Source: Takakia lepidozioides (taxonomy: Eukaryota > Plantae > Bryophyta). From it: 64,000 nucleotides of DNA. The stretch is taken from the NCBI GenBank assembly GCA_030704615.1, contig CM060734.1, positions 56,668,001 through 56,732,000 on the forward strand, read 5' to 3'. Below, one piece after another: positions 1 through 60,887 of this stretch (positions within the stretch are counted from its first letter, which is position 1; each line of letters starts with the position of its first letter). Under the pieces are notes generated by a model. The model worked only from the letters and a program-made list of their open reading frames with translations. It was not told the origin of the DNA and searched no databases. The position numbers were made by a program, and so were the translations under genes.

Positions 1-1
1 A

Positions 2-1378
2 GAGTATTGGTCACCTAACTATGTCTCAATCACTAGAGGCACAAGGGCAGCGGTGACACCAGCAGCTACACAAACATCTCCAACTACAAGCACTAGTAGT
101 GGAACAAGTAGTGTCGGCACTTCTGCAGGTGGTACCAGTTCAAAAGGTGCTACTACTCCTCCTGCCACAATTACAACACATGTGCCTAGATTCAACCCGG
201 TGGTGGAGTTCTTCCAGGAGTTGCGGAGGAACTACCAAGGTGTACGGACAGAGAAGCTGCGAAGTTTGCAAGACTTCCAGCGCAAATCCAGTGAGAGCTT
301 GCGAGAGGCCTACACTCGTATGAGGCGCTTGATAAGTGTGACCCAAGGGGTTACTGAAGCTCAGGCAGTCCAGTTCTGGTATGGAATTTTGGACAAGGAG
401 CTCAAGAGAAGGGTGCGGGATGCAACCCTGTTACAAGCGGCCCAACCCACATTAGCGGATGTGTTTCTGCTGGCTGAGCGGATTGAGCTCAACATGGTGG
501 AGGAGCGAGTTGTTACCATTGGATTTGGCAAGGACATGCCTGCACGAGGTGCAGCTGCCAGCCAACAGGTACAAAGGACTGCCCAACAGCGTGGTCAGGG
601 GGGCAAGGTTGCCCAACCCAAGTTCCATGGAGCTTACAAGGGACCTCAGGTGCGGCCCGTGGCATCTTTTGCAGGCCAACAGCAACCAGGGGTGATATGT
701 TGGACATGTGGAGGACCCCATGTCAAGAGAGATTGCCCAGAGAGTGGCAGAAGGCCGGCACAAGCACAGCCTGCACAGTTGCAGTGTGGGCATTGTGGCA
801 AGTATGGGCATGGAGATGCCCAGTGTTATGACTTGCACCCTGAGTTGCGCCCAGGCCAGTTCCAAGGGAACAATGGTGGCCGGGGGCGAGGTGGACCAGC
901 CCAGAGAGGACGAGGTGGTCGGGCACGAGGTGCAGGCCAAGGGCAAGCTCAACATGGCCAAGGACGCGGAGGTCAGGGTGTTGACCAAGACATGGCCAAC
1001 CGGCTTCAGCAGCTAGAGCAGAGGCTCGCTGCCATGGCTACAGCTCAGGTGGTACCGGCTCCCAGGCGGGATGGTCCACCTCCTGCTCCTGAGGGAGGAG
1101 ATATGGGAGGCATGGGATTCATGTGGAGCAGCACTACCACTAGTGCAGGTGGAGTCTGCTGCAGCCGTGACTCGAGGAGCACACGAGTTCCTGAGCCACG
1201 AGGTGCAGAGGTGGAATTGGATCCACAGCGTGGGGAGGCAAGCCGTCAGGCGAGGCTTCCTCAGTCATTCACATTGGCGGAGACAGTGTCGACGCCATCC
1301 ATGGCACCTAGTTCTCGCCCGACTGTTACCGAGGCGGAGGTTACTATGCCATTGGGAGAGCTACACGTGCAGCACTGA
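2..1378 (+). pseudogene. retrotransposon gag (5'-partial): capsid-like region, two zinc knuckles, RGG-rich nucleocapsid
   Basis: Frame is open from base 2. Gag-like QRKSSESLREAYTRMRRL; knuckles CWTCGGPHVKRDC and CGHCGKYGHGDAQC; GRGRGG repeats. Probable frameshifts near 1130-1180 and about 1355. Confidence 0.9.
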
Positions 1379-1407
1379 CACCTGCTACCAAGGCTAGTGC
1401 AGCCGGT

Positions 1408-2300
1408 GTGTTATTGGGGGCAGCCACCTCTGTGTGTCAAGCCCCACTGTTCTCGGCAACCATGATTGCGACGCCGGGGGTAAGACCAGTTGCAGTGTTC
1501 AGACTAGCAGCAACACTCTGCGAGAGTGGGGAGGTCACTTCATCTTCTGCGGAGTTACTGGAAGGTGTAGTGGCAGAGGGATCCTCGGATTTGAGGGTCA
1601 AGACTGCCACGGCTGCGCCATGGCAAGCTGCAGCTGCCAAGTTGACGGAGCTGTCAGCTAGGCCAGCCTTTGAGCGCGCCATGGTGACACCTGGAGTTGT
1701 CTTGTTAGACAACCAGGGAGGCATTTTCACTTTGAGTGGACCGGCAGGCAAGAAGTACCGGCCACTGCGGGTCTTGTTGGACTCAAGAGCTCAGCCACTG
1801 ATGTTGGGCAGAGCTGCTATTGCAGGTTTGGGCCTCATGGAGGCGGATATGGAGCCTTGTCCTTTCCAGATACTGACATCTCTGGGAGGATCAGAGCAGG
1901 CTCGGGGCATGACACGGCGTGAGTTGGCCATTGGACTACAACCAGATCATCCTGTAGATGGCTCAGTGATGCGAGCCAAGGCCATTGTGACAGACGCGAT
2001 CTCTTACAATGTCCTTGTTGGTGGGGCAGTGTTATATCCCATGGGCTTCACCCTGGACTTTTGGGAGGAGTCAGCATCCTACAGGCCTGGATGGCAGTCA
2101 GGGGATGGTCGTCGTGCACAGCTCCCTGTGACATTCATTGGGGGTATTGCGGCTGCCCAGCGGGGCAAGATGCCAACACTAGCCGCTTTTACAGCTGCAG
2201 TTAGTTGGCCTGGAGAGTTGCTGGAAGGCAATGCCCATGCAGAGGATGTGCCACCTCCAGCAGAGCAGGATGACATGCATGGTACGGCGGAGTTTCTGCC
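1408..2300 (+). pseudogene. retroviral-type aspartic protease region
   Basis: VLLDSRA at 1771-1791 is the LDSGA catalytic motif with G>R (gga>aga). The C-terminal YNVLVG motif corresponds to YDVLLG. Frameshift into the pol frame near 2300. Confidence 0.8.
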
Positions 2301-2492
2301 ATGGTTGCTCACACTCCATTATGGGGTACGAGCAAGGATTTGCAGCAGGCTGCTGATGGACGGGTACAACAAGCCTGGGTAGAGGCCTTCGTACCGTCAG
2401 GAGAAGAGGAAAGTGCGGTGATTGCACCAGGACCACCTCAGTTGTCGCCATTGGACACCACACCTCTTGTGTGGCAGTGCCCGGATGAAGGC

Positions 2493-3440
2493 ATATGCTT
2501 TCTGGACTTGTTTGGCGGGATCAGCACTGGATTGGCTGCAGTACTGCATGCAGGTGTACGAGTTCGACGTTACCTGTATGTGGAGAGGGATGAGATTGCA
2601 CGACGCGTCTCACTGCGCCATGTTGCTCAGTTGGTACAGCAGTACCCTGATTTGTTGCCAGTGTCTGCAGTTCGTGGATACCAACAAGCCTTGCCAGCAG
2701 ACATTTCGTTGCTGGGGGCGCAGGATTTGGAGCGGGTTGGCTCCATTGATCTGGTAGTGGCATGTTGGCCCTGCCAAGGGCATTCATCAGCCGGACATGG
2801 CAATGGATTGCAAGACTCGAGGACGGGTCTGTTTTGGGAGATGGTGCGGATTTTGCGCCACTTGCAGCTTCATCAAGCTGTATCTCCAGCATACATCTTG
2901 GAGAATGTGCCACTGATGGGTGATTCTCGGGCCAGGGTGATGGCCAGTATGCATCAAGTCCGGTCGTGGCTTGGGTCAGCAGTGTTGCTGGATGCAGCTG
3001 CAGTGGGGTCATGGGCTCATCGTCCACGGCTATGGTGGACTAACTTGATGCCACCCGCACTGCTCAAGCGTGCATTTGATGGGGTGCAGCGGCCAGCACA
3101 CCTCACAGTGGATAGCATTTTGGACACAGGGAGGTAGTCTCAACGTGTGAGACACGATGACCGTTCGCCTGGTGTCAATAGGGTGGATCAACCACGAGCA
3201 GCATTACCTACACTGCTCAGCTTCCCAGGATCCCATGCTTTTCAGGATGGTGGACCTGGCCTATTGTGGGATAGCCAGTTGCAACAATTAGTGGAGCCCA
3301 ATGCTGACGAGCGCGAGCGGGCGATGGGTTTTACCATAGGTACCACGGCGGTGCCATCTCTTTCTGAGGCATCGCGTTGTCAGGTGTTGGGGCAAGCAAT
3401 AGATCTCAATTGCTTGACCTGGATTATCAGCTTGGCTATG
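2493..3440 (+). pseudogene. cytosine-5 DNA methyltransferase domain (DNMT3-like) embedded in pol
   Basis: Motif I FLDLFGGISTG (2499), II YVE, III ADI, IV WPCQGHS (PC at 2769-2774), V DSRTGLF, VI ILENV (E at 2901), VII LLDAA, VIII AHRPRLWWTNL (3015), IX ERERAMGF (3309), X RCQVLGQA (3375). One internal TAG at 3135-3137. Confidence 0.95.
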
Positions 3441-3791
3441 GCTGAGCAGCGCAGAGTACGGAGTACACTTCCCTTCATGGTCTCCCTGCCTACCGAGACG
3501 GTACAGGCAGCAAGTGGGGGCGAACAGGTGAGGACCACGAGGTGCAAGCCGCATCCATGGCACACCTGGGAGGTTCTCGAGGTTCAGAAGGAGTTGGCAG
3601 CCAAGGCGGCGGTGATGGATCAGGTTGGGGATTTTTCTCGGATTGAGGAGGTCCTCAAGGATGGGATGATGGGGCAGGATGAGACATTGTCACTGACAGA
3701 GGAGGAAGTGGTCATTGCTCAAGAGGTTGCAGCATAGCAACCACGGGACGCGTCTTCTACCTCTAAGCCTGCTGGACTCAAGGTTGCAGTT

Positions 3792-5240
3792 ATGGAGGAT
3801 AACTGGGAGCCTGATGTTGGACCTATAGTCACCGGAGGAGAGAGACGACGTATACGACGGTTCTTGAGGGCTTACATGAACTGCTTTGCCTTCAGTTTGA
3901 AGGACTTAGGAGCATTGAAGGGTCAAGAGATTCGCATTGAATTGGCTACTGACACGCCAATCTTTCGGAGACCCTATAGATATAGTGACATGGAGAGGTC
4001 CTTGATTCAGATGAGAACTCAGGACCTTTGGGAGGCTGGTTTGGTGGAGCTATCTGGGGGAGAGTATGCTTCAGCTACAGTGATGCCAGCCAAGAAGGAT
4101 GTCTTTGGCAATTGGACGGAGAGACGTATGTGCGGTGATTACCAGCCTGTAAATCGTCAAACCAAGTCCGATAGGTATGCCATGCCAACACCAGAGGAGA
4201 TCTTTGATGCCATTGGGCATGCCAAGGTCTTTAGCACGTTGGATTTACGATCCGGATATCACCAGTTGCCGATCAAGGAGGAGGATAAGCAAAAGACGAC
4301 ATTCTTGGGGATTAATGAGCACGAGAAGGATTGCCTATACCAGTGGCGGTTCTTACCATTTGGGCTTAAGAACGCTCCGGCAGAGTTTCAGAGAGTCATG
4401 GACAGGATTCTAGCAGGGGTGGAGTTTGCTCGGTGCTACATAGATGACATCATCATCTTTAGTGCTACGGTGGAAGAGCATGAGAGACACCTTTAGGGGG
4501 TATTTGAGCGCTTGAGGGCGCACGGATTGAAGTTACATCCGGGAAAGTGCAAGTTTTTCCACAACCAGATTGAGTATCTGGGTCACATGATATATCCTGG
4601 AGGATTGGGGGTACAACAGACTAAGGTAGAGTCCATTGCACAGGTTCCACGCCCCACGGATATGAGCCGAATTCGAGCTTTCATGGGGTTAGCAAACTAT
4701 TATAGACGGTTTGTTAAGGGATTTAGTGCCATTGCAAAGGCTCTAACCAAGCTGACCAAGGTGGACCAGGAGTAGCAGTGGGAAGATGAGCAAGAACAAG
4801 CTTTTCAAGAGCTCAAGGCGAGGTTGACCTCGGCGCCCATCTTGAGACGACCTATCAGGGGGCGTCCTTTTCAGCTGCATACAGATTGGAGCGTGTTCGG
4901 GCTTGGAGCGGTGCTCACACAGGTGGACGATGAGGGAAGAGAGTTCGTAGTGGTTTATGCTAGCCGCTCGAACAACGTTGCAGAGTCTAAGTATAGCTCA
5001 TATGAGGGAGAATGCTTAGCTGCAGTGTGGGCCGTGGCACACTTCAGGTGCTATCTATACGGCAATCTCTTCACCCTCGTCACGGATTACCAACCACTCA
5101 AGTGGTTGATGGAGTCAGACAAGCTTACGGGGAAGCTTGCACGGTGGGCACTCATCCTTCAAGAGTATGACTTTCAGGTGGTGCATCGACCGGGTTTGGT
5201 CAATCACAATGCAGATGGATTGAGTCGCAATCCATGCACG
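3792..5240 (+). pseudogene. reverse transcriptase + RNase H of the gypsy element
   Basis: RMCGDY, LDLRSGYHQL, LPFGLKNAP, YIDD, YLGH. RNase H: HTDWS...GAVLTQ, YSSYEGECLA, TDYQPL, NADGLSR. TAG stops at 4494 and 4773. Confidence 0.96.
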
Positions 5241-5447
5241 AGCCAGCAGGATGACACTGGAGCTCGGTGGCATGGTGAGACGGACGAGGAGATGGTGCCC
5301 GGATGGCATGCATCTGCATTTCTGTGTATCTTGGCAGCGGAAGGCCAGGTTGGACCTGCAACAGGGATGACTATAGATCAAGTGTCTGAGGACCCTGAGG
5401 CTAGCAATGAGCAAGGTGGCGCCAAAGATATACATTAGGATTCAGTT

Positions 5448-6872
5448 GTGTTGGACTACCTCCGCACTGGAGACACTACAGCCACTGTGACTGCCAAGGA
5501 GAGGGATCGGATCCTACAACGAGCCAAGAGGTTCAAGTGGGAGAGGACACACCTGCTCCGAGTGTGGGAGGATGGTCAAGTGAGGATTGTGCCTCACCCA
5601 ACACAGCGGGCACGGTTAGTGCGGCATGCCCATGAGGAGTTGGGGCATTTTGGGGTGCGACGCACTCATAGTCTACTGCAGGGGCAGTATTGGTGGCATG
5701 GTATGCACACAGAAGTGCAACAATTTGTGGCTAGGTACATGGTGTGTGACAGGGTGCGTGCTTCATTCAACGCCCCTACTCCACAATTGCACCCTCTTCC
5801 GATCATGGGATTGGGCTACAGGTGGAGTCTTGACTTCGCAGGGTCGTTGCCACTGATCATGCGCCACAACAAGTACGTGTTGGTGATGGTGGAACACTTC
5901 TCCAAGTGGATTGAATTGGTTCCATTGCATGATAAGGCTAGTGAGGGAGCTGCGTATGCATTCTTGGATTGTGTGCTTAGCCGATTCGGTGCTCCAGCTG
6001 AGGTACTCACGGACCAAGGGAGAGAGTTCTTGGGGGAGTTTTAGGCTTTGTGTGACAAGGCCTTGATAGACCACCGCACCACTTCTCGGGATCATCCTGA
6101 GGCCGATGGCTTGGCAGAGAGAGTTGTTCAGATAGTAAAGAGGGTTTTGCGCAAGTATGGCTTGCAGAAGGGACACCTAGGAGATTGGGACCTTCAGTTA
6201 CCCTAGTTAGCCATGGGCTACAGGTTCAGCAAACAAGCATCACTTGCCTCCTTCTCACCATACTTTCTTCTCTTTGGCCGAGAGCCAGATTTGCCTACAT
6301 CCATTCGCAGAGAAGCTGCTACAGTTCTTAACCTTGACGATCCAAACGTGTGGGCACGTGCATGTGAGCAGCGTGCAGAGTTGTTCAAGAAAGTCATGCC
6401 CATGGCTTTCGAGAACCTTGCCATTGCACAACATCGTGATATGTTGAGGTATGCGACCATACGTGGTGGGGGCTATCGTCCTGGGGTTCGGAGATTCAAC
6501 CCTGGTGACTATGTTTATCTGCAGCAGACTGCTCCTACGACCTTGGATGTGACTACAGGACGTACTATTTTGATGGTTCGAGAGGTGTTGCCCTCAGGAG
6601 TCCTGATCTTGGAGGGTCGGGATGGCATGATTTGGAAGGACCATGTGCGTAATTGCGCGCCATGTCACCTTCCAAATGTTGATGGAAGGGTTGACCCAAA
6701 CCTGACAGTGGTACCTGCAAGTTTGAGGTGCATGTTGTGTGGGTCTGCTAGAGGGGCAGCCATCATGCTGGTGTGTGATCAATGCTCTAGAGGTTGGCAT
6801 ATGGGATGCTTGACTCCACCTCTTGAGATGGTTCTTGATGGGGATTGGTTATGTCCGCATTGCATTGGATAG
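5448..6872 (+). pseudogene. integrase (HHCC, DDE, SH3-like tail) with C-terminal PHD finger
   Basis: HEELGHFG...RYMVC (HHCC with C>Y); DDE residues in SLDF, TDQG and LAER; FNPGDYVYL. PHD C4HC3 CMLC...CDQC...HMGC...WLCPHC at 6729-6863. TAG stops at 6042 and 6204. Confidence 0.95.
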
Positions 6873-7118
6873 TAGGAGTGGATACAACCATGGAAGGCTA
6901 ACAAGAAATGCAAGGCCAAGCTACTAGGAGACCAACACACGAGATCCTGACTCAAGTTCACAGATTGCAAGACGGCAACTAACGATGGGGTTGCTCTTGT
7001 ACCCGGCCTCTTGGTCTATAGAGTTTGAGTACAATAGGGACAGTGATAGAGGACTTAGTATGGCTGAGGCTATTACATCTTGTAGCTATCTGGAGTTAGA
7101 GGGACCTAACCACCAGCT

Positions 7119-7128
7119 AGGGGGGCGA
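7119..7128 (+). other. polypurine tract
   Basis: aggggggcga, separated by one base from the TG start of the LTR. Confidence 0.75.
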
Positions 7129-7129
7129 T

Positions 7130-7723
7130 TGTGGTATAGCTTTCTAGGATTGTGTGCTTAGATTGTGAAGTGGACAGCGATGTATGTTGTGGCACGATGC
7201 TTAGGTGCACGACAGCTGTCATGGTTTTAGTCATGGTTATCTAGAATTACCTACTTCTAGTTAACTAGGACATTATAGATATTTATATTTATATTTTGTG
7301 TGTTGGGACTTCATTCGGTCTTACATGCCAAGTGAGGTGTCGAGCCTCACTTGAGACATGGAGATAAGTTTTCCCCTTGTGAGTGTTGAGGAGGCTCATC
7401 TTCTTGTAGTTGAGCCTCCATGAGCTTCTCTCACCTCCATAGCTCTAGGTATTGAGAGGGAGTGTGTTGAGGGCTTTGTAGGGTGGATTCCTTTAGCAAA
7501 GGTGCCCTTGGCTTGACTTAGTTTATGTGATAGAGTGGATTTCACTTGGAAGGACTAGGGCTTGTTATTCATGTGATTGCTTCATGCTTTGAGAGCTTTC
7601 ATTGTCTTCTACTTCTCTTATTTCTCATCTCTTATCATTGTGGTATAGCTTTCTAGGATTGTGTGCTTAGATTGTGTGGTGGACAGCGATGTATGTTGTG
7701 GCACGATGCTTAGGTGCACGACA
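7130..7723 (+). repeat. 3' LTR (about 594 bp) with an 85-bp direct repeat at both ends
   Basis: Starts TGTGGT and ends ACGACA (5/6 inverted). 7130-7214 and 7639-7723 differ at 2 positions. AT-rich TATA-like tract at about 7274-7298. Confidence 0.75.
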
Positions 7724-8585
7724 TCACACTTGAACTTACATAAAATATGTACGCAGTATGAACGAGTACCCATTACAAGAAATAAAAAGCTTATGCGCTC
7801 TCATGCACCTAGCATCCGCCATTTTTCTAATGCGAGGTCCCTAATAGCTGCTTCCATCTCGAACTCCAAACTTGCAACCTTCATGGCCTCTGCAACTTCC
7901 CTTGAAGCCTGACACATGTCCCATGTTTAACTAACTGTTTCTAGCTCTGCAGGTTACTGTGTAGTCAATAGGTGTGGACCATGACATTGAAATCTTAAGG
8001 TACAAGTGCAGCTATCGAAGCCCATAAGATTAACTTAGACACAATGATCTCAGACAATTGAGATCCAAATATTATGCAATAAATATAAAAGCTTCACAGA
8101 TTCGGAGGCATCTTTGTTTATATTTCTCTTTGATAAACCTTCATTGCAATTCATCAGGATTGGTGTAGAAGCTTGGTGCTTGAATATTGCACTTGAACAT
8201 AGCCGCCATCTACATTTTCGACATTTTTGTGTGTGTTTTGTATTGTGTTTTGTTTTTTTCACTACAACACACCCTATGTAATTTTGACGATTTAGTTTGA
8301 CACTAGCGTTGACTGTTGTCACTTTCGACTGTTCCAACCATTTTGCAGTCAAATTTTATATTAAATATTCGAGGTGCTAGACAACCGCGAAAATTTGACT
8401 ATAGTGAGAGACTTTGACTACCTAAAATGAGCTCACTGAGACAACCAGTTAAGCAATGGCACGTGTAATCACAATAAATAAATTATATAGCAATATATAT
8501 GTGGATAATAAGAAGTTAAAAAAATAACTATTTTTTCACTGACCCAACACATTAATAGTAAACTAATCGTGTGCTTGTTAAAGTT

Positions 8586-9189: not shown

Positions 9190-9790
9190 CAACTAAAGGC
9201 AGCAGCTGATAAAATCAGGCACCTCAACCATGACCACAGCTGTTGAAATTAGAGGATCAAGAGAGGGAGTCCACAATGCGTCTTCTGGCACTTCTGGGCA
9301 TGTGAAGATACTTTGTGCGGCAGGCAGACTGACAGAGGCTCTACAGACTCTAAGCCAAAGAGGCATTTCAGCAGATTCAGATATGTCTGTCTGGTGCTTA
9401 AGTGCATCAAGATGGATGGTCTGGAAGCTCGAAAGCAGGTGCACACTCACATTATCCAAAGTGGATTCACACCAAATGTTTTTCTACTCAACACCCTTGT
9501 CAACATGTATGTTAAGTGCGGAAGCATCATAGATGCTCACCAAGTGTTCAACAAAATGCCTCAATGATCTTTGATCACGTGGAATATTATGTTGGCAGGA
9601 TTTACCAAGCGTAGGTGTGGTAGGAATGCTTAGGAGACCTATGTGCAAATGTTGCGTGAAGGGGTGAAGCCCAACCACATCGCGTTTGTTTGTGTTTGCA
9701 ATGCGTGTGCAAGCCTGGGAGCTCTGGAAAAGAGGGAAGAGGTCCATAGTGACATTGTCAAAGCTGGAATTGTACCAGATGTCATCCTGG
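9190..9790 (+). pseudogene. PLS-class PPR protein pseudogene, copy 1
   Basis: QVHTHIIQSGFTPNVFLLNTLVNMYVKCGSIIDAHQVFNKMP and MLREGVKPNHIAFVCVCNACASLGALE. Frameshift near 9390, TGA at 9565, a further TAG near 9630. Confidence 0.9.
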
Positions 9791-10659
9791 AAATAGAAGC
9801 GGCAGCAGCCCAATTGATAGAACAATTCGTTGCTAATGAAGGTACCTTCTTCAATACATTTCACTCTGTTTTGCCATGTTATCAGAGTCGTCCCTAAATT
9901 TCATGTAGAATTCTGCAAGTTAGCTCGTTCATGACGTGAGCTGGCATGAGTTTTATAAAGATCCTTCACGATGGTGGGACAACCGCAATCACAAGGTGTG
10001 GCTTTTCTTAATGTACGATGTGAAGAAGTTTGTCCATCTTGCAAAGGTGGGCTCTTGGCTCCTGTTAGCACCATGATTTGGTGTTCTTCCTGATGTTTAC
10101 AAGGTTCTTGGGAGAGTCAGCTTGGTCTTAGCAGGCCGTGTTTCAAGAGTCTGCCTGCTCAGCTGCACCATGGTGGTTCTCACAGACCAATCCAACATTA
10201 CCTGACTACAGACACAAACATCACACACAAGAGGTCATTTTGGGTTGATGCTCGGTCAAATCCTCCATGGGTCAAGGACAATGTGGTGAGGGCACCTTCT
10301 TCTTTGACCTGTTGCAGCCTGTTTTGCCCCCTCATCAGACTGATGCATATTGAATTCTGTAAGTTAGCTCATTGGGTGGATCTGTGGTGGTTTGGAGTGA
10401 CTTTGAACTAGTGTGATAAGTAAAGTTGGGGTGTTTGTTGGAACAATTCTAGGCTATCATTGTCAGCTGCTAGCAGCAAGGCAAAGATGTATGCATGATT
10501 TGTGCAGAGGTATGGATAGCTGAAGGGGCAGGGATAGAGTGTGGGTGCAGATTCATCCAAGAGGGCTGGATTTCAAGCTCCAGATTACCTATGATTCCAT
10601 GTGGATCAATAGCTACAAGAAACTTGCTGCATGGGTAGATGGTCAAGTAAAGGTAGCAG

Positions 10660-12060
10660 CTGCAGCAGCACAGCTGATAAAATCAGGCACCTCAACCATG
10701 ACCATAGCTTCTGAAAGAGGATCAAGAGAGGGAGTCCACAATGCCTCTTCTGTTGGGCATGTGAAGATGCTTTGTGAGGTAGGCAGACTGACAGAGGCTC
10801 TACAACTTTAAACCAACAAGGCATTTCAGCGGATTCAGATACGTCTGTCTATCTCTTGCTTAAGTGCATCAAGATGAAAGGTCTGGAAGCTGGAAATAGG
10901 TGCACACTCACATTATCCAAAGTGGATTAACGCCAAATGTTTTTCTACTCAACACCCTTGCCAACATGTATGTTAAGTGTGGGAGCATCATGGATGCTCA
11001 CCAGGTTTTCCACAGAGTGCCTCAACGATCTTGATCACGTGGAATATAATGTTGGCAGGATTTACTAAAGATGGGTGTAGTAGGAGTGCTTTGGAAACCT
11101 ATGAGCAACTGTTGCGCGAAGGGTGAAAACCCAACCACATCACATTTGTTTGTGTTTGCCATGCGTGTGCAAGGCTGGGAGCTCTGGAAAAAGGGAAAGA
11201 GGTCCATGGTGACATCGTCAAAGCTGGATTTGTACGAGATGTCATTCTGAACACTGCCCTTATGGACATGTATGCCAAAATGTGTGTGCATTAAGGATGC
11301 AAAGGGAGTTTTCAACACTATGACTGAACGAGATGTGGTATCATGGAACATAGGGGGAATGTGATGTTTGCAGGGTATGCACAGCAGAGACATGGTATGG
11401 AGGCTTTGGAGACCTATGATCAAATATTGATGGGGGAAGGGGTGAAGCCCAACCACATCACGTTGCAGCATACTGGTACTTCACAGCCATGGCGGCTCCC
11501 TCAGCCCCTCCATTTTTTTTTTTCTTTTGGTTGTTTTGGCGCTGGGAGAGAGCAGCAGCTCTGCTGTCTCCTTCCCCTTGCTTATGCCGATCGTTAAAGG
11601 GGAAATTGTCATTCTGAACTCTGCCTTGGTGGACATGTATGCCAAATGTGGGTGCAGCAAAGCCTGATGTGAAGGGAGAGTTTGACAATATGGCTGAACG
11701 AGATGTGGTATTTTGGAGTGCCATGATTGCAAGGTACGTGCAGCATGGGTATGGGATTAAGGCTTTGGAAACATAAGAGCAAATGTTGTGGGAAGGGATG
11801 AAGCCAGACCAGGCCGTCATGTTCATTTGTTTTTGTAATAGGCATATGCGAGCCTAGCAGCCCTGGGAAGGGGCAAAGAGGTTTATGGTGACATTATCCA
11901 AGCTGGAATTGTACCAGATGTCATTCTGAACATTCCCCTGGTGTACATCTACGTCAAATGTGAGCCTGGTAGCCCTCAAAAGGGCAAAAGGTCCATGCTG
12001 ACATCGTCAAAGCTGGAGTTGTCACTCTAAACACTACCTTGGTGGATATGTATGTCAAGG
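10660..12060 (+). pseudogene. PLS-class PPR protein pseudogene, copy 2 (tandem paralog of 9190-9790)
   Basis: Nucleotide-similar to copy 1 over about 600 bp, then further decayed PPR motifs (ALVDMYAKCG, ERDVVSW) with many stops and frameshifts. Confidence 0.9.
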
Positions 12061-20696: not shown

Positions 20697-22659
20697 ATGC
20701 CCACAGTGAGTGTGAAATGGCAGAAGCAGGTATTTCCTGCGGTGGAGATCGATACGGAGCAACCGCCGTTTGTTTTCAAGTGCCAGCTCTACGACCTAAC
20801 CGGCGTGCCCCCCGAGCGACAGAAGATTATGGTGAAGGGGGGGCTGCTGAAGGATGATGGAGACTGGGGCGTTATAGGGGTGAAGGATGGGCAGAGGTTG
20901 ATGCTTATGGGCACAGCCGATGAAGTTCCCAAGGCCCCAGAGAAAGGTCCCGTGTTTGTTGAGGATTTGCCGGAGGATGAACAAGGTACCGCCGCCCTAG
21001 GTCACACAGCGGGGTTGGTGAATCTGGGAAACACTTGCTACATGAACTCTACGGTTCAGTGTTTGCATTCTGTGCCAGAGCTTAGATCTGCCTTGGGGGG
21101 GTATTCTGTGGGAACTGCAACCGGGGTTGACCCTATGTCTCATACCCTAACTGTGGCGACGCGTGACCTGTTTAACGAGCTTGACCGCAGCCACCGACCT
21201 GTGGCTCCCATCCGGTTCCTGACGATGTTGCGAGACAAGTAAGTCTTATCTCTCACACACTTGGTACCCTCTCTCTCGTCCCTAAGGGAAAAAAGGTAGA
21301 AAGCTACCTACCCCAACTTATTTCGCATATCGCTTTTAGGGTTGGACATACCATGAAGATCTATTGCAAATAAATTTGTAGCTACGTCCTTGGTAAACTG
21401 TGGAATCCTATTTGGTAGGCCTAATTGGTATAAGTTATCTCACAGCCTTTAGGAGTTTTTATTTTTCCTCGCTTCTCAGCTTGTTTAAGTATGGATGTGA
21501 CACAAGAGAAGGTAGATCCGCTGCAGGTAGGCGAGGCCAATAGCTGCTACGTTTTAATAGAAACATCAAATGTTATGATTTGGAATTCACCTTTGGCAGC
21601 TTCTCTATCTGCGTATGTGCTTTTAGTAGAACATTGTGTAGGGTGATCTCAACAGTCCTTGTTCGTTCTTCACATTGGCATATGAAGTAGTCTAAGCAAG
21701 GGTATGAGGACAGGTACCCGCAATTTGCACAGCAGACAAATGCAGGTGTTTATATGCAGCAGGATGCGGAGGAGTGTTGGACGCAACTGGTGTATGTGCT
21801 TTCACAGCGTCTGCAGGCTTCGCCACCTGAGTTATCAGCCTCAGTTGTTAAACAGTTGTTTGGAATTGAGCTGAAGAGTGAAGTGAAATGTGCAGAAAGT
21901 GGCGAGGAAAGCTCAGAGTCAGAGACAGTCTTTACATTTAAGTGTCACATTTCGCAAGAAGTGAACCATTTGCACGAGGGTTTGAAGCAGGGCTTAAAAT
22001 CTGAGCTGGAGAAGACATCCCCAGTGCTTGGCCGAAGTGCTGTCTATTTGAAAGAGTCTCGCATCAACAAACTCCCCCCATATTTAACAGTGCAGTTTGT
22101 AAGATTCTTTTGGAAGAGGGAGTCAAAACAGAAGGCAAAGATTCTACGGAGGGTGGACTACCCTATGGTATTGGATGTGCTAGATTTTTGCACTGATGAG
22201 CTCAAGGAGAAGTTGAAAGACCCTCGCAAGGTTTTGCGTGATTTTGAAGATGCCCAGGCAGGCGTCAAGAAGAAAGAGAAAGAAGGTGCAGAGGGTGTGA
22301 AAGCTCTCCAGAATTCAGCCGTGGCAAGTAGGGATGAGAATGTCGAGATGGTGGATACTGCGCAGATTGACGGGGGAGTGGCTCCTTCTTCCTCACATAA
22401 AGGTGAGGGTGAAGAAGAAGCAGAATTGGAAGTCACTGGGCTTTATGATTTGGTTGCAGTTCTCACACACAAGGGCCGCAGTGCCGATTCAGGCCATTAT
22501 GTTGCTTGGGTCAAACAAGAGAATGGGAAATGGATAGAATTTGATGATGATCAACCTATCCTCCAAAGAGAGGATAATATCACCAAGCTTTCAGGGGGTG
22601 GTGACTGGCACATGGCATACATTTGTTTGTATAAAGCTCGTCTTGCCCCCCCTTCTTAA
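20697..22659 (+). CDS. UBP6: ubiquitin-specific protease UBP6/UBP7 (USP14 family); exons 20697-21238 and 21714-22659, 495 aa
   Basis: N-terminal UBL MPTVSVKWQK; Cys box GLVNLGNTCYMNS; QQDAEECW; His box THKGRSADSGHYVAW; GGGDWHMAY. The GT-AG intron gives an in-frame RDK-YPQFAQQ junction. Confidence 0.95.
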
Positions 22660-24228: not shown

Positions 24229-27200
24229 CTAGTACTTGATAGACTTGACGGGCTTTGATCCACCATTCGCCAAAGCAAGTTTGGCGTCTCCTGACTTCAT
24301 CTCAGTCCAGGCCTCAATCCAGGTTACCATAGCCTCCGAGAGCTTTGTGAAGTAAGGGTCCACGCTGTTCAGCTTATCCTTTACCTGCTCCATTTGTACA
24401 CCATAGAAGCAGCTAACATCAAGGAAAACCCATGGCTGACTACATTAATTCACAGCTATCATCTACCTAGACTTGCAGGTATAACTGAAGAGTCTACATC
24501 ACAAAATCAACGTGGTGTGGGGATCTGTCGTGAGCTCTCTCTGTTTGCATCGTGCCTGACCTCTTAAGACACATGGCTGGGGAGGGTAAATGGGAATGTC
24601 AATGATCTGTGTCTTGTGCAGTGGAATCACTTTAGCCACTGATCTGCAGTCAAAGGGGAATGATTATGCCTCATTCTAACTCTATCCTCAAACCCCAACA
24701 TGCTTGGACATGCCCAGAGGGGTAAAGAACCTAATGGCCACCATGTGCCAGACACCACAGGAATCGACTTCAGACGATGAACTCTATATCCTGACGATAG
24801 GAGGAATAGGCCAAAAAGAAATTTTACAGAAGCATATTGGCGACAGACAGTGACTAGGTATGATGGACTGAACAGCTCTATGTTGCTTTACATTGGCCTT
24901 CTCTTTATCCTCGTCATGAAGACATTATGTTCATACAAAGGCTCTCCAGATCTGTCACCGAATTTCCAGTGTAAGACAAGCTTCAGAAAACTGTATTGCC
25001 AAGGGTTCAAGGGACATTAACATCACAGTTGTGAGACTGACCTGCTTGGACAATTCAATGTAGCATTGCTCCACGGTCACACAGTCCTTGGAGAGCTGCA
25101 CTGACTGGAAAAAGGGGATGATTTCTTCCTGCCAGAAGATGCCCTTGTACTCCTTCTTGAGGTTTACAAATGGATTGCTAGCCTTGCTGTGATGTATGTA
25201 GGGCAGCCCTGTCTTCACTCCATAGCCAAGGTGGTCGCAGATGACCTACAACAGAAAGCAAGACCTTTTCAACCTGAGTATGTCTATTGCAAGCTTCTAA
25301 CCCACCTACATCTACAGATAGACAACCATGCACTTTTCAGAGTTGTCCGGTTAGAAGCTGAGTTGGAGCCGCCACCATTGCAGAGGAAAGTCTGAAGTCT
25401 GTACATCCTCCAAATATACCATACCACTTCTTCCTGATTAATTTGTTTTGAAAGTAAGAATTTTCCATGTCATCAGCACTAGCTACTCAACATGAAAAAC
25501 TTTTCAAGGAAGAGACTCCAGGCAGTGGTCCAAGTCTCTTGTGTGGCAAACTATCCACATATGCAACGTTTTAGGATAGGTACTGATATAAACAGTTATT
25601 TCACGTCTCTGGAGAACCCGCTGTTCAGTGTCAAATCAGTGTGTGGTGACACACTGGGGAGAAGTTATTTGATGAGGGAAACCCAAGCAAGCTGCAGACC
25701 TTGGTTCATTCAAGTGATAACTGGCTATTGCTCAACACGTGGACAATCTGTAACCAACTCCAATCAGGACTACTGAAAATGTTTTTAGTGCGTATGAGGT
25801 AAAAAAGAACAGACAAGATTGGCCTCACCTTGCAACACCAGCCTGCCCACATATCGTCATATCGCCCAATAGGCTGGCCATCTCCCATGAGACCGAAGTA
25901 CATTGCTGGACCAATTAACTCTCTATCAAAACCCAAATTCATTCCACACATTGGGAACAATGTGCCCTTTGGGATTGTCAACACCGCATCCACATATCTG
26001 CACAATAATTCAGACAACATGAGTCCACACTCCTCAGACAACTTACAAGTTCCACAAACAAAGATCTCCACAGGGATGGTTTAGGAGTCCAATCAACCCA
26101 TCACTGAGAAAAGTGCCGCACAATGAGCACAAAACGAGCATTGCAGTGTGAGACGTTGTAACAGGTGCATTGCCTGAGTATTCGGGCTTTGACTTGCAAA
26201 ACCTTGGTCTCTGTAATACTTGGAAAATCATGTCCATTATTACAGGGTGGATTTTACTGGATTAACAGAGGCTACTCTACCCGCCAGACATTTCGCAGGC
26301 AGTGCTGTGCCCCTCTGTGCAGCAATCTGAGAACTGCAGCTGTCACCAGCAGAACAGCTCAGCTCAATGAAGGAGGGTAATAACATGGGTTATGTAACTG
26401 GGGTGGCAGTGCAATGGCTGTTTCATTGCTCACACAGGCCCTGAGGAAGATCCAGCGCCCAAACATTCTCTCATTTCTAGGTGGACTTCAATAACATCGG
26501 TAGGCTGTAGATCTGTTCAATCTCCATTGCAGACTGACATAGGAAAGGTAGACTCTTGTACTGGGAAATCACTTACCCACCAGTGGAAACCAAGGCAAAA
26601 TCAATGGAACCAAAGAGATTTCGTTGGATGGTAAGAGGCAGCTGGTGCTGGCAAGAGTGCAGTAAGGTAGATATAAATTTCAGAGTGGATGACTCTTGTG
26701 CTCCCAATCTGTGACTTGGGGGTGTGTGCGGACATGCAGTCAAACAGGCACCCGCAAGGACATCTTGAACACACGCATTCTTGTGGCAAATGGCTCAAAA
26801 TATTAGGAGTGAATACAGACTGAAAGCACTAACCTCTTGTTCTTTTCTGTTGGTTTGACCAACTGTGTAGGAGCATCGTAATCAGGGATGTTGAGCCACA
26901 GTCCGTGTGAGATGGCAGTCGGAACTCCTTCTCTCAGACTAAAAGGGTACCCACGGACAAAGTCAGCACCCTTGCGATATGGGTCGTACAGTGTGTTGAA
27001 GAAATAAGGCGTCGAATTTGAGGTCAGATTGGTGATATGCTGCTCCAAAGCGTTGATCTCCTTCCCTGACGGGTCCTTCGCAACCTGTCATCAAAACTCA
27101 CGACCAACGCTAAGTTTCAAAGTGTCAACTGGGTTTGACAGAAACCGTTGCCAGTGCCGTGAGTGCACAGATAAAATTGCAGCAATGCCAGTGCTCTGGA

Positions 27201-27597
27201 GCACAGACTCTGGCAAACAAACTGAAACAGACATTCTACAACACTCAAGGTCCAGGCTTGCGCGAGATGTGACAGACTTCCTCACCCAGCAGTCATCATC
27301 GATGGTAAAAATGTATTTCTTCTTGGACATGAGGAAACCAAAGCACCGGCAAGCGCTGTCTTTGAAGGAGATGCAGGAAGCCCTGGGACCCAGGATCCGG
27401 TTGATGTCATTGCGGTTGTACAGCTCGTAATCATAGCCCTCAGGCACCCTGATCACCTTGGACGGGTCCCCATCCTGCACAATGATGAGATGGTAGGGGC
27501 TCAAATACGGTCTCCACTGCTCAAGAAAATCCAGGTTCCGAATGGTGGGTATCACAATGTCGAGCTCGTCCGTGAGCAAGGGGACGGGAGTCGCCAT
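24229..27597 (-). CDS. RGP: UDP-arabinopyranose mutase / reversibly glycosylated polypeptide; exons 27597-27286, 27084-26834, 25997-25829, 25245-25042, 24384-24229, 363 aa
   Basis: [46 protein letters not shown]. All introns are GT-AG with consistent phases. Confidence 0.96.
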
Positions 27598-27961
27598 CCC
27601 TCTCTATAAACCCACCAACAATCTCTCACTCCCAACTCCCAACAAGAATAAAAAGCTTGCAGCTTGCAGAGCCCCGTGTGTTGTGGATCCCAGATCCAGA
27701 AATGCCGCTCTCTCTCCCGCTGCTGCTCGCTCACAAAAATCTGCGCTGACAGACGCGCACAATGATCTGGCTGCAGCTCTTGTTGCGATTAACACACGGC
27801 CGCTCCCCGAGTAGGCCCGTCCGCAGGCCGGGCGCATTTGCCTGCGGCCCGACATGGCCGCCGGCTTGCACGTCTCCACCGAGCACGCAGCACGACCGTT
27901 CTTCGTGCGCCACCGTGCCCATTCCGCCCAGAACCTCCCTCCCTCCTCCCCACCCCTTGAC

Positions 27962-33963: not shown

Positions 33964-34527
33964 TCAAATCTTATCAATCTTATCGGCTTTAACTACGGGA
34001 TTCGCCTTGGCTATGGCGTCTCGGCCAGCAGTTTTATAATCAAACGAACAATTGTGCTTGTCTGAGTACCGATGCAAAGCGCAGTAAGAGTTGCCACAAC
34101 GGCACTTGAAGCCTGTCAAACCAATACGTTTCTTGCAAGAAAAACAGCGATTAGGAGTTTGCTGCCGCGGTTGTTCCAGTTCGGAAGCAGAAGGAGGCGC
34201 ATCCGAAGAACTGCTTCCTCCGTCCGTCTGTTCACCCGGCGATTGTGCAACCGCAACCAACCCCTCTGGCTGCATCTGTCTTTCGGCCAGATCTGCTCTT
34301 TCCAGCGGGAAATCATTTTGAGAGGAAGCACCAACGGCCTTTTCGGCTGCAGCCTTAGCTGACGAAGCCTTTGCTTGCTTTAAGACGAAGTCTCTGTAAC
34401 ATTTCGAACACAGGCCTGTGGTGGCTGCACTTCCAAAGAATCCGCAGTTATTCGTGCACAAAACCGGCCCTTCAGGAGGCTGGCAACCTGTCTCCTCCTT
34501 ATCGCGCTTCCAACTCTCCTGCGCCAT
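33964..34527 (-). CDS. A20/AN1 zinc-finger stress-associated protein (SAP), 187 aa, intronless CDS
   Basis: A20 LCTNNCGFFGSAATTGLCSKCY; AN1 RCFSCKKRIGLTGFKCRCGNSYCALHRYSDKHNC; terminal IAKANPVVKADK. Confidence 0.96.
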   Translation of the reverse strand: MAQESWKRDKEETGCQPPEGPVLCTNNCGFFGSAATTGLCSKCYRDFVLKQAKASSAKAAAEKAVGASSQNDFPLERADLAERQMQPEGLVAVAQSPGEQTDGGSSSSDAPPSASELEQPRQQTPNRCFSCKKRIGLTGFKCRCGNSYCALHRYSDKHNCSFDYKTAGRDAIAKANPVVKADKIDKI

Positions 34528-37500
34528 CCTTCCCAAGATAATAAGCCTTGCTAACAACCCGGTCGGATATGACCAAACCACCTGGCCAGAAGCCCAGTCT
34601 TTACTCCGCTCCTTCCCCTTCTGGTACCTCCAACTTACGCTTGTTGAACCGCGCACCCGGGCTTCCCTCACTCCCGAGTCATCTAGATACCTGCACAGAC
34701 GTCTTCATGCAGCATCATGTAAAGACCACCACCAATACTCCGCAGAAAGCCCGGACTCCCCTTGACAAAATGACCTTAACTTCCTTGCCAGGCCAAACGC
34801 TTACACATCAGGAACAGATCATACACCAAACCTTCAAAACCGTGAAGATCCTCCGCCAATATTCACACCACTCTCCCTCCCCCAGAGCTTTCTCAAACCA
34901 AAACCAAATTCCTTCTCAACACCTCCCGAACCCCCTCTGCGTGCAGACCTCTCTAAAGAAAGCAGATCTACTCAAAAAAGAGGTCACCAGATGTGCAACA
35001 AGAACGGCACACTACAAGAGACATCCGGCTATGTAAGTATCCCAGCGCAGAATCGAGATGCGAGAGAAGAGCAGAGCGCATTGATCTATAATGCTGTGGC
35101 AGGCCGCCCTAGCCTGGCCTCCCTCCTGCCTGCACCTTCGGGCAGCCTCGGGCAGGCCGCGCGCTCCCTACCCCGCCCCATGCCATCCATGCCTATGCCA
35201 TCCCACCGCTCCCCCACCCGCCGTTTCTCCCGGCCCCTCCCAAACGCTCCCCGGCCCTGCCCCTCGCGCCCCATCGCCCCTCCAATCCCGCGCGCCCCCT
35301 GCCTCCCCCGCTTTCCATTGGACCCGGCCCGACCGGCATCCCTCCCTGCGCCCTTTCCGGTCGCATGTGCACCGCCTCCCCCCCCGGGTCGCCGCCCCCG
35401 GTCCCTCCCAACTACCCCTCCTTTTAGGTTGACCCTGTCAAACCACCGGGGCACCCATCACTTTTTTCTTTCATTTTATTTCCATTTATTCTCCATTGGA
35501 GGCTCGTCTTTGTGACATAGCTGTGCAGGAAAACAAAAATAATAAAATCGTAAAAAAAAGGAAGATAAGAATTAAAGAAAGACTGGTGCAGAGCCTTCCA
35601 ACGGTCGCCACCCGCATCCATGTGGCGTGAGCGGGGCGAGCACGGCAATGACCACCCTCTACCTCGCGCAATCGGGTGCCACGGGAGCTTCGGTGCGGGC
35701 AAAACGAGAGCAAACATCCGCCGCACCGTATTCCAAAAGGGTGGCGCACGGCTCCGTCTCTCACGCCCATGGTGACCTCGCCCCACCTGCCCGCCTGCCC
35801 GCCTGTACTTGCCCCAACTTGTCCCCCTTTTGGGGATACCATCATCCTCTGTCACTCGGGCCGGGGCCGCAAAAAAAAAAAGCGGACGCCCAGAACGTGC
35901 GCATTCTGAGTATTTGCGTATTCCGAGTAAGTATTCGCTGGAGATGGCCGGTCGCTTCTCACATGACGTAACGTGGTTGGCAACAACAGAGACCGATGGG
36001 CAGACGGATAATCTCGCCGCCGGTAAGGCTCCGCACATGGCCTAATGCGGGCCAAAACAACGTTTTCACCCGGTCTGCCCGCTGACAGGGGTGACTGGCC
36101 GGGTCACCCGCTGAAAACGCGGGGCTAGTGGCCAAGGGGGGGCCGCCACTTTATCAGGTGGGACCGACTCTAGTTAGCTAGCTCGGCATGGTGACCACAT
36201 ACTCCGATCAATTGACTTGGTCGACTCTCCCCACTCCACTTCCAACTTGCTGCGTCTTATTTCCGTTCTAAGGAAATAAGTAAATTAGAGAAAAAGAAAA
36301 AGAATGTTCTAGGCCCTTTGGGTATAGGTCTATGAGCTGGCTCACGAGTGCTGGAAAAGGCAGCCACAGCCGTCCAGCATGGCCATCATGGGGCCCCCGT
36401 GTGACCTGGCATACATGCATCGCCCGATGCTTCTTTAGGGCACGTGTGACCGCGGAAGCCAGTGACGGCACCGCACGGGCGACCCAGCGCACCGTCGCAG
36501 CGTGGTTATGAATCTGAACTTTTCGTCCACGCGAATGGGCGCCCGCCACGTCAGGCCTATAGACATTGTTGCCGAACCGCGCAGCGCGCGGTTGCGGCAG
36601 CGGGTAGCGGCGGCCCGGCGGTGGCTAGAAAACAAAGGCCGGGCTTGGAATCGGGTTTTTGGAATTTACTGCTGTTGTTCTCGCTGGAACTTCTCCTTCT
36701 TTTCGCACATTTCCCACTGGAACACGCCCACTTGACTCATCGGGAACTCCAAATTTTGGTTTCTTCTCTCTATTTCTCTTTTATTTCTGTGACGCGGCCC
36801 GCAAACTGGGCTTCAGTTTCGCCAAGTTTCGCCGGGCATTTCTCCGACAAATTTGCCCTAAATGGCCAGTAATGAGGACCGTTATCCCGGGTGGCACAAG
36901 TCCCGCCACAAAAATCCCGCGCGCTATATTAGACACTCTCGCCACGGCCATCCCAGGCAGTCAACACGGTGGCGAAACTGCACGGCCGCGACGCCCTCGG
37001 GGCGCGGGCCGGGCCCAGCTGCCCGCATCTTCCCGCCAGACCCATCCCCGGTTCAACTCCGCATACTTCCAGTGCTCTCCTTCCCCAGCGCAAGATGCGT
37101 GTAAGTAGATGTCTTGACGATGGAGACGCTAACTATTATTATCGGGAGGCAAAGATGTAAGGAGGACAATGGTGGTTGGGCAGGAGTGACATCAGTTACA
37201 CAGGCTCCTGGTACATGACAGAAGTCATCCAGTAGGAGGATCACATCCCCGACTTTCATCTCTGGAGCAACCAAACTCCATTATTTTCAGCGTGTACCCG
37301 ACCACATACTAGGTTAGGGCTAGGCTGGCGAGCGGTAGGTGGCGAAACATGTCAGGAAAAGTGGTGGCGAAACAGGCGCCCATCTTATAGTGGCTGGGCC
37401 GGTCTGCAGCGGCAATAGTTATGGGATATATACGCGCGACTGGAATCCAGAGTGGGCCCATTTACGGGCACTCTCATTGGCCCCTTCAACCCCCTTTCGG

Positions 37501-42924: not shown

Positions 42925-43580
42925 TTAGAGCATCTTCATCTTCCATGGACCATTCAAATCCACAGGGTCAAGTGCCTCAGGGGACTGCCCCTTCTTTATC
43001 ATCTGCAGTTCCAGTTTCGGTATGGCAGCATGGACCTCTTTACCTGTTTCCAGGGCACCCAGGCTTGCACACGCATTGAGAGCACAATTGAATGTGACCT
43101 TGTCTGGCATCACCTTTCCCCCATCATTTCCCTGCCACAACCATGCTGAGCATATCCTGCAATTGAGGTGTTCTATGCCACCACATCTTGTTGAGTCATT
43201 TTGTCAAACACTTGACGTGCATCCTCCATGCTCCCTTATTTGGCAAACATTTCGACAAGAGAATTTTCCAACTTCATCCCTGCTGCGATTCCAGTCTTCT
43301 TGTCGGCATGGACCTTTTTGCCCGTCTCTAGGGGCTTTTAGGGTGGCACAAGCATTCAGGACACAGATGAATGTGAGCTTGGTGGGCATCACCCCTTCCA
43401 CTATCATTTGCTCATACATCTCCAGAGCCTCCCTACCATACCCACGCTGAGCATAACCCGTGATCGTGGTGTTCCAAGAGGCCACATCTGGTTGAGTCAT
43501 ATTGTTAAACACTTTGCGCACTTCCTTACTGCTTCTACATTCAGCATACTACAGCAAGGGCTGTCTCCAGAATGATATCT
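42925..43580 (-). pseudogene. PLS-class PPR pseudogene
   Basis: VFNNMTQPDVASWNTTITGYAQRGYGREALEMYEQM and PDKVTFNCALNACASLGALETGKEVH, frameshifted. Confidence 0.9.
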
Positions 43581-54814: not shown

Positions 54815-55590
54815 AGCGGGAGTCAGCTGAGTTTGCTTTGGAATATCTAAATGGCAGATTCTTTCTGCAGCTATTCGTCGCTATGGCCTATCCAGGACCT
54901 AGAAAAAGGGGACGAATGCATGCGTGATTATTTGTTCGGAGTTGGGAGAAGAGAAGCAGCGCTCCTCACGCCTGTCTGTTTCGTTCCAGACTCCATGCGG
55001 TTTTTTCAAACAGGTGAAGCTTTTCTTGCTTTCAAGTGCCATTTTAAAGAGACGGATAGACTCCTTAAGTGGCTAGTGTCCCTTGAACAATCGAATCTCT
55101 CCGTGTACACAATTCATTCAATGTCGACCAGGGTATAGCAATTTGCAGCTCAATATCTTGCTGTTTGAACCCAATTGCAGCTATGATATGATGCAGGATA
55201 CATTGACATTCTTACTCTCATTCATACTCAAGCAGCACCAAGGCTGTAAGTGGAGATATTGAGCTGGCAAGGGCGCTTTATTCCTACTTGGACTTTCTTT
55301 CTCTAAATATTAATCTTCATGATCGCAGGAATAGCAAATGCATCGCAATCAACTGATGACAGCCACAGTGATGAACACTCTTGCAAGTGGTGCTCCTACA
55401 CAGAGTGCTTGGTCAAGTGATGGAAGGCCTCTTTCGGTGTATTGTGATATCCCAGCAGTTACCGAGTTTCTTATTAGTCGGCCTGAGTTCATGTTCGGTG
55501 AGATGTAATCTCCTTACTGGCCTTCATGATTCTGTTTGTATGCATGCTCCTTATTATTGCTTGTCTTTATGTTTTCTGAGTGTCTGGCTA

Positions 55591-60750: not shown

Positions 60751-60887
60751 ATGGGAGTTCAAAAAGTATTTGGTTATGGATGGTTGTTGGGACAGCGGCA
60801 GAGTTCATGAAGAGCACCCAGTCTGCAACTAGGCAAAAACAAAAATTGTGAAGTTTCCTTCTCCCCCCCCTCCCTCATCTGTTTCAG

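Follow-up and report, generated by a model that had tools for sequence, protein, structure and literature searches.

The window, by which we mean the whole stretch of 64,000 nucleotides of Takakia lepidozioides DNA that was analysed, contains a dead copy of a very abundant Ty3/gypsy retrotransposon family that carries a DNMT3-like C5-cytosine methyltransferase (MTase). It is a land-plant variant of an element already known from algae, and it adds a conserved stop codon of the leaky type and a split long terminal repeat (LTR) combined with an integrase. The coding part of the window element comprises the following features:

2–1378, plus strand: gag region with zinc-knuckle-like motifs (ORF; Retrotrans_gag E 0.008, below the cut-off; matches the gag of relatives)
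1678–2112, plus strand: aspartic protease region (45% identical to the related locus L037; upstream of the MTase in relatives)
2493–3452, plus strand: DNMT3-like C5-cytosine MTase domain (motifs I–X in order, Pfam, PDB profile, fold)
3735–3743, plus strand: in-frame TAG stop, conserved among relatives, with CAA CCA directly after it; putative readthrough signal of the form UAG-CAR-YYA (aligned stops)
3954–4643, plus strand: reverse transcriptase, RT (RVT_1 E 3.1e-31; private stop at 4494–4496)
4779–5168, plus strand: RNase H, RH (RT_RNaseH E 4.4e-33; stop immediately 5' at 4773–4775)
5598–6098, plus strand: DDE integrase, INT, zinc-binding part and core (Integrase_H2C2 E 1.2e-13, rve E 3.3e-12; aligned with open relatives)
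6729–6863, plus strand: PHD finger at the integrase C-terminus (PF00628 E 4.4e-9; ORF end at 6870–6872)

The order of gag, protease, RT, RNase H and integrase, a polypurine tract (PPT), TG...CA ends and a short target duplication, the ends and the duplication being read in relatives, place the element in Ty3/gypsy. The 5' end of gag lies outside the window, and the gag frame breaks near 1120–1360 and shows indels relative to sister copies. The protease ORF extends from 1312 to 2382 and breaks from the MTase frame near 2290. No Pfam match was obtained for the window protease, which was assigned via its identity to L037; the protease region of L037 itself matches Asp_protease_2 weakly (E 2e-4, below the cut-off). 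In relatives gag, protease and MTase are in one frame, whereas in the window copy gag and protease sit in other frames than the MTase. Consequently, this copy is dead. A further private stop (3135–3137) and an indel (near 3171) lie inside the MTase domain, and the integrase region contains stops at 5436, 6042 and 6204. The PHD finger had gone unmentioned in a sequence-only reading of this DNA.

That reading had described a DNMT3-like MTase with its motifs in canonical order, lying between the protease and RT of a Ty3/gypsy element, and both statements were confirmed. The motifs, numbered I–X, appear as I (LDLFGG, from 2493), IV (PCQ), VI (ENV), VIII (RPR), IX and X. When the frame 2274–6872 was compared with Pfam, with X at its seven TAG codons, PF00145 was matched with an E value of 3.7e-12 and 46.8 bits (cut-off 22), followed in order by RVT_1, RT_RNaseH, Integrase_H2C2, rve and PHD. 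All 31 of 31 matches of the window MTase among PDB sequences were DNMT3A/B/C or DRM-type entries (best E 2.3e-9). A query profile made from 28 relatives ranked DNMT3A/B/C (E 1e-21 to 1e-16) before DRM2 (1e-10 to 1e-9) and bacterial enzymes (E at least 1e-6). The structure predicted for the domain had a pLDDT of 85.8, and among the Foldseek matches listed for this model all were DNMT3 structures (best E 5e-17). An Atlas search with the MTase returned only PF00145 clusters, with a streptophyte cluster first. Thus, by profile and fold the window domain is a C5-MTase nearer to DNMT3 than to DRM, DNMT2 or bacterial enzymes. DUF3444, the partner domain in host DNMT3, gave no Pfam match in the window element or in the scanned proteins of relatives. 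A recent prokaryotic donor of the domain was considered and rejected, since phage MTases were at most 24–31% identical (best 10 of 227).

All 58 loci that cover the site retain the catalytic Pro-Cys, and Glu-Asn is retained in 52/58 and 57/59; these counts are biased towards conservation, because the loci were picked by PCQ- or HRPR-based patterns. The arginines of motif VIII were retained in only 42/58 and 44/57 decayed copies. We consider it very probable that the MTase was catalytically active in live copies. A quite unlikely alternative is that the domain is kept for DNA or RNA binding or for RNA methylation, for example holding or marking the LTR junction for integration. It would be in line with the motif IV of the open relatives P0133, P0134 and P0298, which reads ECQ and not PCQ, and with the CG content of the window: the observed/expected ratio is 0.50 in the element and 0.51 elsewhere in the window, which leaves no methylation footprint specific to the element, and neither CG nor CWG depletion separated the element from host DNA within the window. 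It would also agree with the related MTase domain of the alga Klebsormidium nitens, which produced no methylation in yeast, a result that its authors call inconclusive (PMC5890265). The retained Pro-Cys and Glu-Asn, within the bias just given, and the complete predicted fold speak against such a role.

The family is represented by very many copies. In run X1 77,549 contigs were aligned on window positions 1–8500, and the summed contig depth was 0.71–1.25 million over the MTase compared to 0.88–1.12 million over RT, with 73.6, about four orders lower, for a flank contig; as summed contig depth is no copy number, it is taken here only as a sign of abundance. Named relatives were found in Calypogeia fissa, Marchantia polymorpha, M. 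paleacea, Riccia sorocarpa, four Sphagnum species and Closterium; the context of those from Marchantia, Calypogeia, Sphagnum and Closterium was derived from protein architecture. Several gene models of Marchantia polymorpha contain an open Gag-protease-MTase ORF, e.g., Mp4g09160, Mp5g06330 and MpVg00370. Among 80 metagenome loci picked by MTase motifs, with duplicates kept, those with enough flank showed RT downstream of the MTase in 42/46 cases and a protease upstream in 54/63. The MTase is thus present in most sister copies. Another retroelement domain was present in 101 of 145 further representatives, and the other 44 were all shorter than 900 amino acids. None of 37 pattern matches in viral contigs was a relative; in prokaryote genomes 1 of 48 pattern matches was one, and this was itself a whole Gypsy element. 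A 9.3-kb contig binned as an uncultured cyanobacterium (L081, positions 1–6206) contains a whole Gypsy-MTase element that is 74% like L037 and most likely represents misbinned plant DNA.

In principle, an MTase in this position could also stem from the single capture of a host gene, from a chimeric assembly or from contamination with algal DNA. We regard this as hardly credible. One-off capture is ruled out by the same domain order in tens of loci and in named bryophyte proteins, which also argues against contamination. Among the contigs listed, none bridges the right end of the element to the window flank, as a chimera would have it, but one contig of an independent study (X7) covers 2183–7157 and thus spans MTase to PHD. 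The flanking DNA points to a land plant. It contains the following genes:

20697–22659, plus strand: UBP6-like gene for a ubiquitin hydrolase, apparently with one intron
25700–27603, minus strand: reversibly glycosylated polypeptide (RGP) gene
33964–34704, minus strand: A20/AN1 zinc-finger protein gene
60852–61199, plus strand: HAD hydrolase gene

The UBP6-like exon shares 76% identity with Sphagnum fallax, 66% with a lycophyte and 65% each with Selaginella and a liverwort. In a tree of 19 sequences, which included no hornwort and no other named moss, it grouped with Sphagnum and unnamed sequences (support 73), away from the liverwort and outside the vascular-plant clade, and also outside the Sphagnum pair. 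By this gene a moss host is likely, and a tracheophyte host was considered and rejected. Together with the RGP, A20/AN1 and PPR genes nearby this speaks against contamination, and the earlier view of a land-plant element stands, also by its relatives in bryophytes. The PPR-like region is degraded (9200–12060) and duplicated at a spacing of about 1460 nt, with a further PPR piece at 43204–43548 on the minus strand. Elsewhere in the window we noted a MITE-like element of about 1.1 kb (55589–56671) with terminal inverted repeats of 134 nt (98%) and inner inverted arms, and a dispersed family of 50–90 nt repeats (at 18644, 19372, 28363, 40159 and 63086), possibly a SINE or the end of a MITE.

Pairwise dN/dS values among 60 distinct loci of the Sphagnum type were 0.47 for MTase, 0.32 for RT, 0.30 for INT and 0.56 for protease; decay that set in after insertion raises these values. 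That the MTase exceeds RT and INT here counts against the reading favoured below. Between the window and these 60 loci the MTase showed a dN of 0.27 and a pS of 0.73, with synonymous sites near saturation, like RT. Thus, the MTase domain is under purifying selection. In an MTase tree of 204 thinned sequences a group of 86 with the order protease-MTase-RT was recovered with a support of 1.0. It contains the window element, the liverworts, Sphagnum, Closterium and the K. nitens protein KFL_013780020, in which a protease is followed by an MTase 36% identical to that of the window over 343 amino acids; the previously suggested kinship with charophyte elements is thereby upheld. A second group has the order RT-RH-MTase-integrase and includes Scenedesmus. 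This sister group (P0140–P0151, P0381; about 90 representatives) is built as RT-RH-MTase-INT-PHD, and the chlorophyte Scenedesmus is the only organism named among the 10 of its clusters that were looked up. No description of the group was found in the papers seen. The same split into two groups appeared in a tree of RT and RH (55 proteins), where 13 of 16 well-supported MTase splits recurred. Hence the MTase is co-inherited with RT. Both trees are unrooted or midpoint-rooted and contain no host DNMT3 or outgroup sequence, so we claim the grouping and not its direction.

The sequence-only reading had regarded the MTase as part of Pol, in the frame of RT, RH and INT and separated from them only by TAG codons arising from decay. 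The common frame was confirmed; the remainder of this description is not supported. A stop at the codon aligned with TAG 3735 was present in 32 of 38 related loci, while the other six stops of the window had a counterpart in 0/57, 5/35, 1/32, 0/27, 2/20 and 0/20 loci. Six of the seven TAG codons are therefore private or nearly so, and TAG 3735–3737 is conserved and not a product of decay. Counting back from RT, a stop followed by CAR was found in 36 of 41 distinct loci, the window included; of the remaining five, three have it once frameshifts are disregarded, the fourth carries a double stop that lacks CAR, and the fifth has none. The exact CARYYA followed the stop in 6/41 loci (the window and five others) in four spellings that encode different residues. 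The background rates were 23/546 for CAR and 0/546 for CARYYA. L037 and L081 are open but for the conserved stop, and in both gag, protease and MTase share one frame. All six Marchantia proteins (6/6) end 122 amino acids past motif IX, and three ENA proteins end 140 residues past it, as in the window. In the window branch the stop thus ends a Gag-protease-MTase ORF and parts it from RT-RH-INT-PHD, although the frame continues. P0133, P0138 and P0139 have MTase, RT and RNase H together in one ORF. These three proteins, P0298 and P0329 are each a single unbroken ORF, of about 2,300 residues in several of the deeper relatives; the conserved stop is therefore not required family-wide.

UAG-CAR-YYA is the tobamovirus (type I) readthrough signal (PMC3542737, PMC2754532), and the window and five relatives match it exactly. 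Most loci of the Sphagnum-type family differ from it and carry stop-CAA-CCC-ATG, a context that also fits re-initiation. With good confidence RT-RH-INT-PHD is predicted to be produced by readthrough of the stop at 3735. The likely products would be a major Gag-protease-MTase protein and a rarer extended one with RT and integrase. The conserved stop alters the enzyme dose to be expected: since it is conserved and has a readthrough-type context, the MTase ends the Gag-protease-MTase ORF and is likely made at the level of Gag.

The 3' part of the element has an unusual arrangement of repeats:

7117–7128, plus strand: PPT-like motif, conserved among relatives
7129–7214, plus strand: repeat B1, which ends in GACA and is 98% identical to B2
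7211–7220, no strand: palindromic junction of B1, 2 nt and A2 (GACA-GC-TGTC); predicted integrase cut site when in the other LTR copy (layout of relatives)
7217–7637, plus strand: repeat A2, TGTC...CA (an X7 contig enters from other DNA at 7216)
7638–7723, plus strand: repeat B2, which forms the right end of the element and abuts A2 without a spacer (repeat comparison; contig exit)

Read depth drops past B2, and an X7 contig departs to other DNA at 7723. The partner A1 is expected upstream of the window and was seen at the 5' end of related loci. The layout GACA-nn-TGTC of the junction is the same in L003, L018, L051, L065, L072 and L037, and the whole arrangement A1...B1-A2-B2 is present in L051 and L065. 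Two identical full LTRs at the ends were not found in relatives, which start with A only and end with B or B-A-B. Among loci of the Sphagnum type all 17 readable 5' ends begin with A, and the 3' end is B-A-B in five loci and B alone in ten. Target duplications of 4 bp were exact in four of six two-ended loci, had one mismatch in one and were unreadable in one. Two deviating loci were observed: in L007 (6212–6849; L008 is the same) an inverted B repeat replaces A before the leader on the 5' side, which could be an autointegration product, and in L042 (13169–13450) a truncated element is closed by a short A-leader-B piece that has lost nearly all of its interior.

A tRNA primer-binding site was not recognised, since the leader does not begin with TGG and is complementary to A (judged without comparison to a tRNA library). 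The sequence that follows A1 is complementary to a stretch of A lying 160 nt upstream of its end; in 13 of 19 loci the best match fell there. Pairing of this putative self-primer reached at least 11 of 12 bases in nine of 19 loci, all of one family and with no compensatory change; in L037 no match beside a repeat end was found. Self-priming of reverse transcription is proposed as probable. By primer site and PPT the LTR is an ordinary one of the structure B-2nt-A, and the palindrome at which the integrated ends are found is internal to it. We slightly favour a route in which B-2nt-A is the true LTR, the cDNA circularises end to end and the integrase opens GACA-nn-TGTC inside the LTR, giving A...B-A-B. 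The A...B-A-B and A...B ends, the 4-bp duplications and the likely self-primer fit an integrase that cuts circular cDNA within the LTR.

Somewhat less probable is a route without a circle, in which linear cDNA would be trimmed inside both LTRs to A...B and B2 would be added by a template jump, or B1 and B2 would recombine later. A...B ends (10 loci) are indeed more frequent than B-A-B ends (5 loci and the window). Moreover, random cutting of a circle at either LTR should also give the mirror product A-B-A...B, at odds with its occurrence at 0 of 17 readable 5' ends. On the other side, the A2|B2 join of L018, L051, L065, L072 and the window exactly unites a primer-defined right end with a PPT-defined left end, as end-to-end closure of a circle would do. 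The B1/B2 identities, 0.88–0.94 within elements and 0.87–0.91 between elements, are barely apart, which the circle route does not explain, any more than the missing mirror product. Owing to the split repeats, finders of paired LTRs likely miss such elements, and an unusual path of integration is indicated.

Taken together, we favour, with some reserve, the reading that the MTase stands at the end of the Gag-protease frame before a conserved and probably leaky stop, is made and packaged at the Gag level and likely methylates the element's own cDNA. Through its position before the stop the MTase would be made in Gag-level amounts and, as part of the Gag fusion, would be packaged in the particle. 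There the protease would free it, and it would methylate the new cDNA of the element, so that a new copy would arrive already methylated. The methylated cDNA would then be inserted, probably from a circle, and the PHD finger may steer the new copy to a chosen chromatin state. We see an even chance that the protease frees the MTase in the particle and that cDNA is its main substrate. The sequence-only reading had proposed release by the protease and methylation of either the cDNA or the site of insertion.

Alternatively, the MTase might enter the nucleus after bulk production with Gag and act chiefly in trans, on the chromatin of the host or on genomic copies of the element, as self-restraint or remodelling of the methylome. 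In favour of this, an MTase placed before the stop should be made in large excess over the needs of a single cDNA per particle, the Gag-protease-MTase ORF is still open in several gene models of Marchantia, and self-restraint is raised in the Discussion of PMC5890265. We nevertheless consider action in trans unlikely: the methylome of K. nitens is plant-like despite its elements (PMC5890265), the domain is found without the DUF3444 partner that belongs to the layout of host DNMT3 (PMC6453930), and fusion to Gag favours packaging. More speculative, and in our estimate rather doubtful, is a combined picture of integrase retrotransposons spread through the green lineage and alive into mosses and liverworts. 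They would be self-primed, carry hundreds of DNMT3-like enzymes per particle through their position ahead of a leaky stop, methylate their cDNA and open a circle inside the LTR, with methylation possibly choosing the LTR copy that is cut. If true, retrotransposition would here follow a route of its own, intermediate between Gypsy and DIRS.

It is puzzling that a transposon should carry the very enzyme that silences it, and progress on this point halted when the algal enzyme showed no activity in yeast. Marchantia polymorpha is a genetic model with methylation mutants and annotated open Gag-protease-MTase ORFs, and the question is testable there. MTase-carrying Gypsy elements are in print from algae only; here they are abundant in a moss and also occur in Sphagnum and in four species of liverwort. 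An opinion paper denies that MTase-carrying transposons occur in land plants such as tracheophytes (PMC6338049). In agreement with the sequence-only reading, which knew of no characterised embryophyte example, we found no published report of a land-plant MTase-Gypsy in the largely open-access literature searched, though this kind of element was already known; the supplementary trees of PMC5890265, PMC12344493 and bioRxiv 10.64898/2026.05.21.726589, beyond the main texts available, may contain bryophyte copies.

Several known systems share single traits with the window element. Host plant DNMT3 has the canonical motif order and the DNMT3-type fold, but the host enzymes possess DUF3444 and introns, whereas the window MTase is fused to Gag and protease (PMC6453930, as far as its text was available). 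A PHD finger in a Gypsy polyprotein of the green lineage is described for Gypsy-7a_cRei of Chlamydomonas (PMC9940879), and Phygy/Selgy are compact non-chromovirus Gypsy elements of early plants (PMC6317226). Both are set apart by their descriptions, as the available texts mention neither an MTase nor split repeats.

In Tf1/Tj1 the sequence after the 5' repeat is likewise complementary to a site within the repeat, and in Tj1 gag and pol are separated by an in-frame stop (PMC4600332). According to the accessible part of that paper these elements have ordinary paired LTRs, whereas here the repeats are split and the stop follows protease and MTase. Elsewhere, split repeats are described for elements with a tyrosine recombinase: PAT, Ngaro and Viper have A1-B1-A2-B2 repeats, and PAT also has a methyltransferase domain (PMC4157794). 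In the text available these elements are described with a tyrosine recombinase and without an integrase. The window family, in contrast, has a DDE integrase, TG...CA ends and 4-bp target duplications; in five scanned ORFs of L037 the rve integrase was present and a tyrosine recombinase was not matched. In the literature seen, we found no published integrase-using element with split or permuted LTRs beyond a figure legend in PMC5890265.

The closest counterpart is KnitGypsy-Dnmt3 of K. nitens, with a DNMT3-like MTase, DIRS-like repeats and placement in the Pol ORF (de Mendoza et al. 2018, PMC5890265); KFL_013780020 is presumably one of the copies reported there. Both elements are Gypsy elements with an intronless, unpermuted DNMT3-like domain under purifying selection, and both have DIRS-like split repeats (in DIRS A1, ORFs, B-A2-B), of which the window shows the 3' half and L051 and L065 the whole. 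The protease-then-MTase protein of K. nitens also groups with the window element. The window element differs in its land-plant host and its very high copy number, and in the conserved stop that cuts the MTase from RT, whereas PMC5890265 places the MTase in the Pol ORF. Its integrase PHD finger and the model of self-priming and integration are without counterpart in the available text of PMC5890265, in which the word PHD is absent. Judged by sequence, the window element is the land-plant branch of KnitGypsy-Dnmt3.
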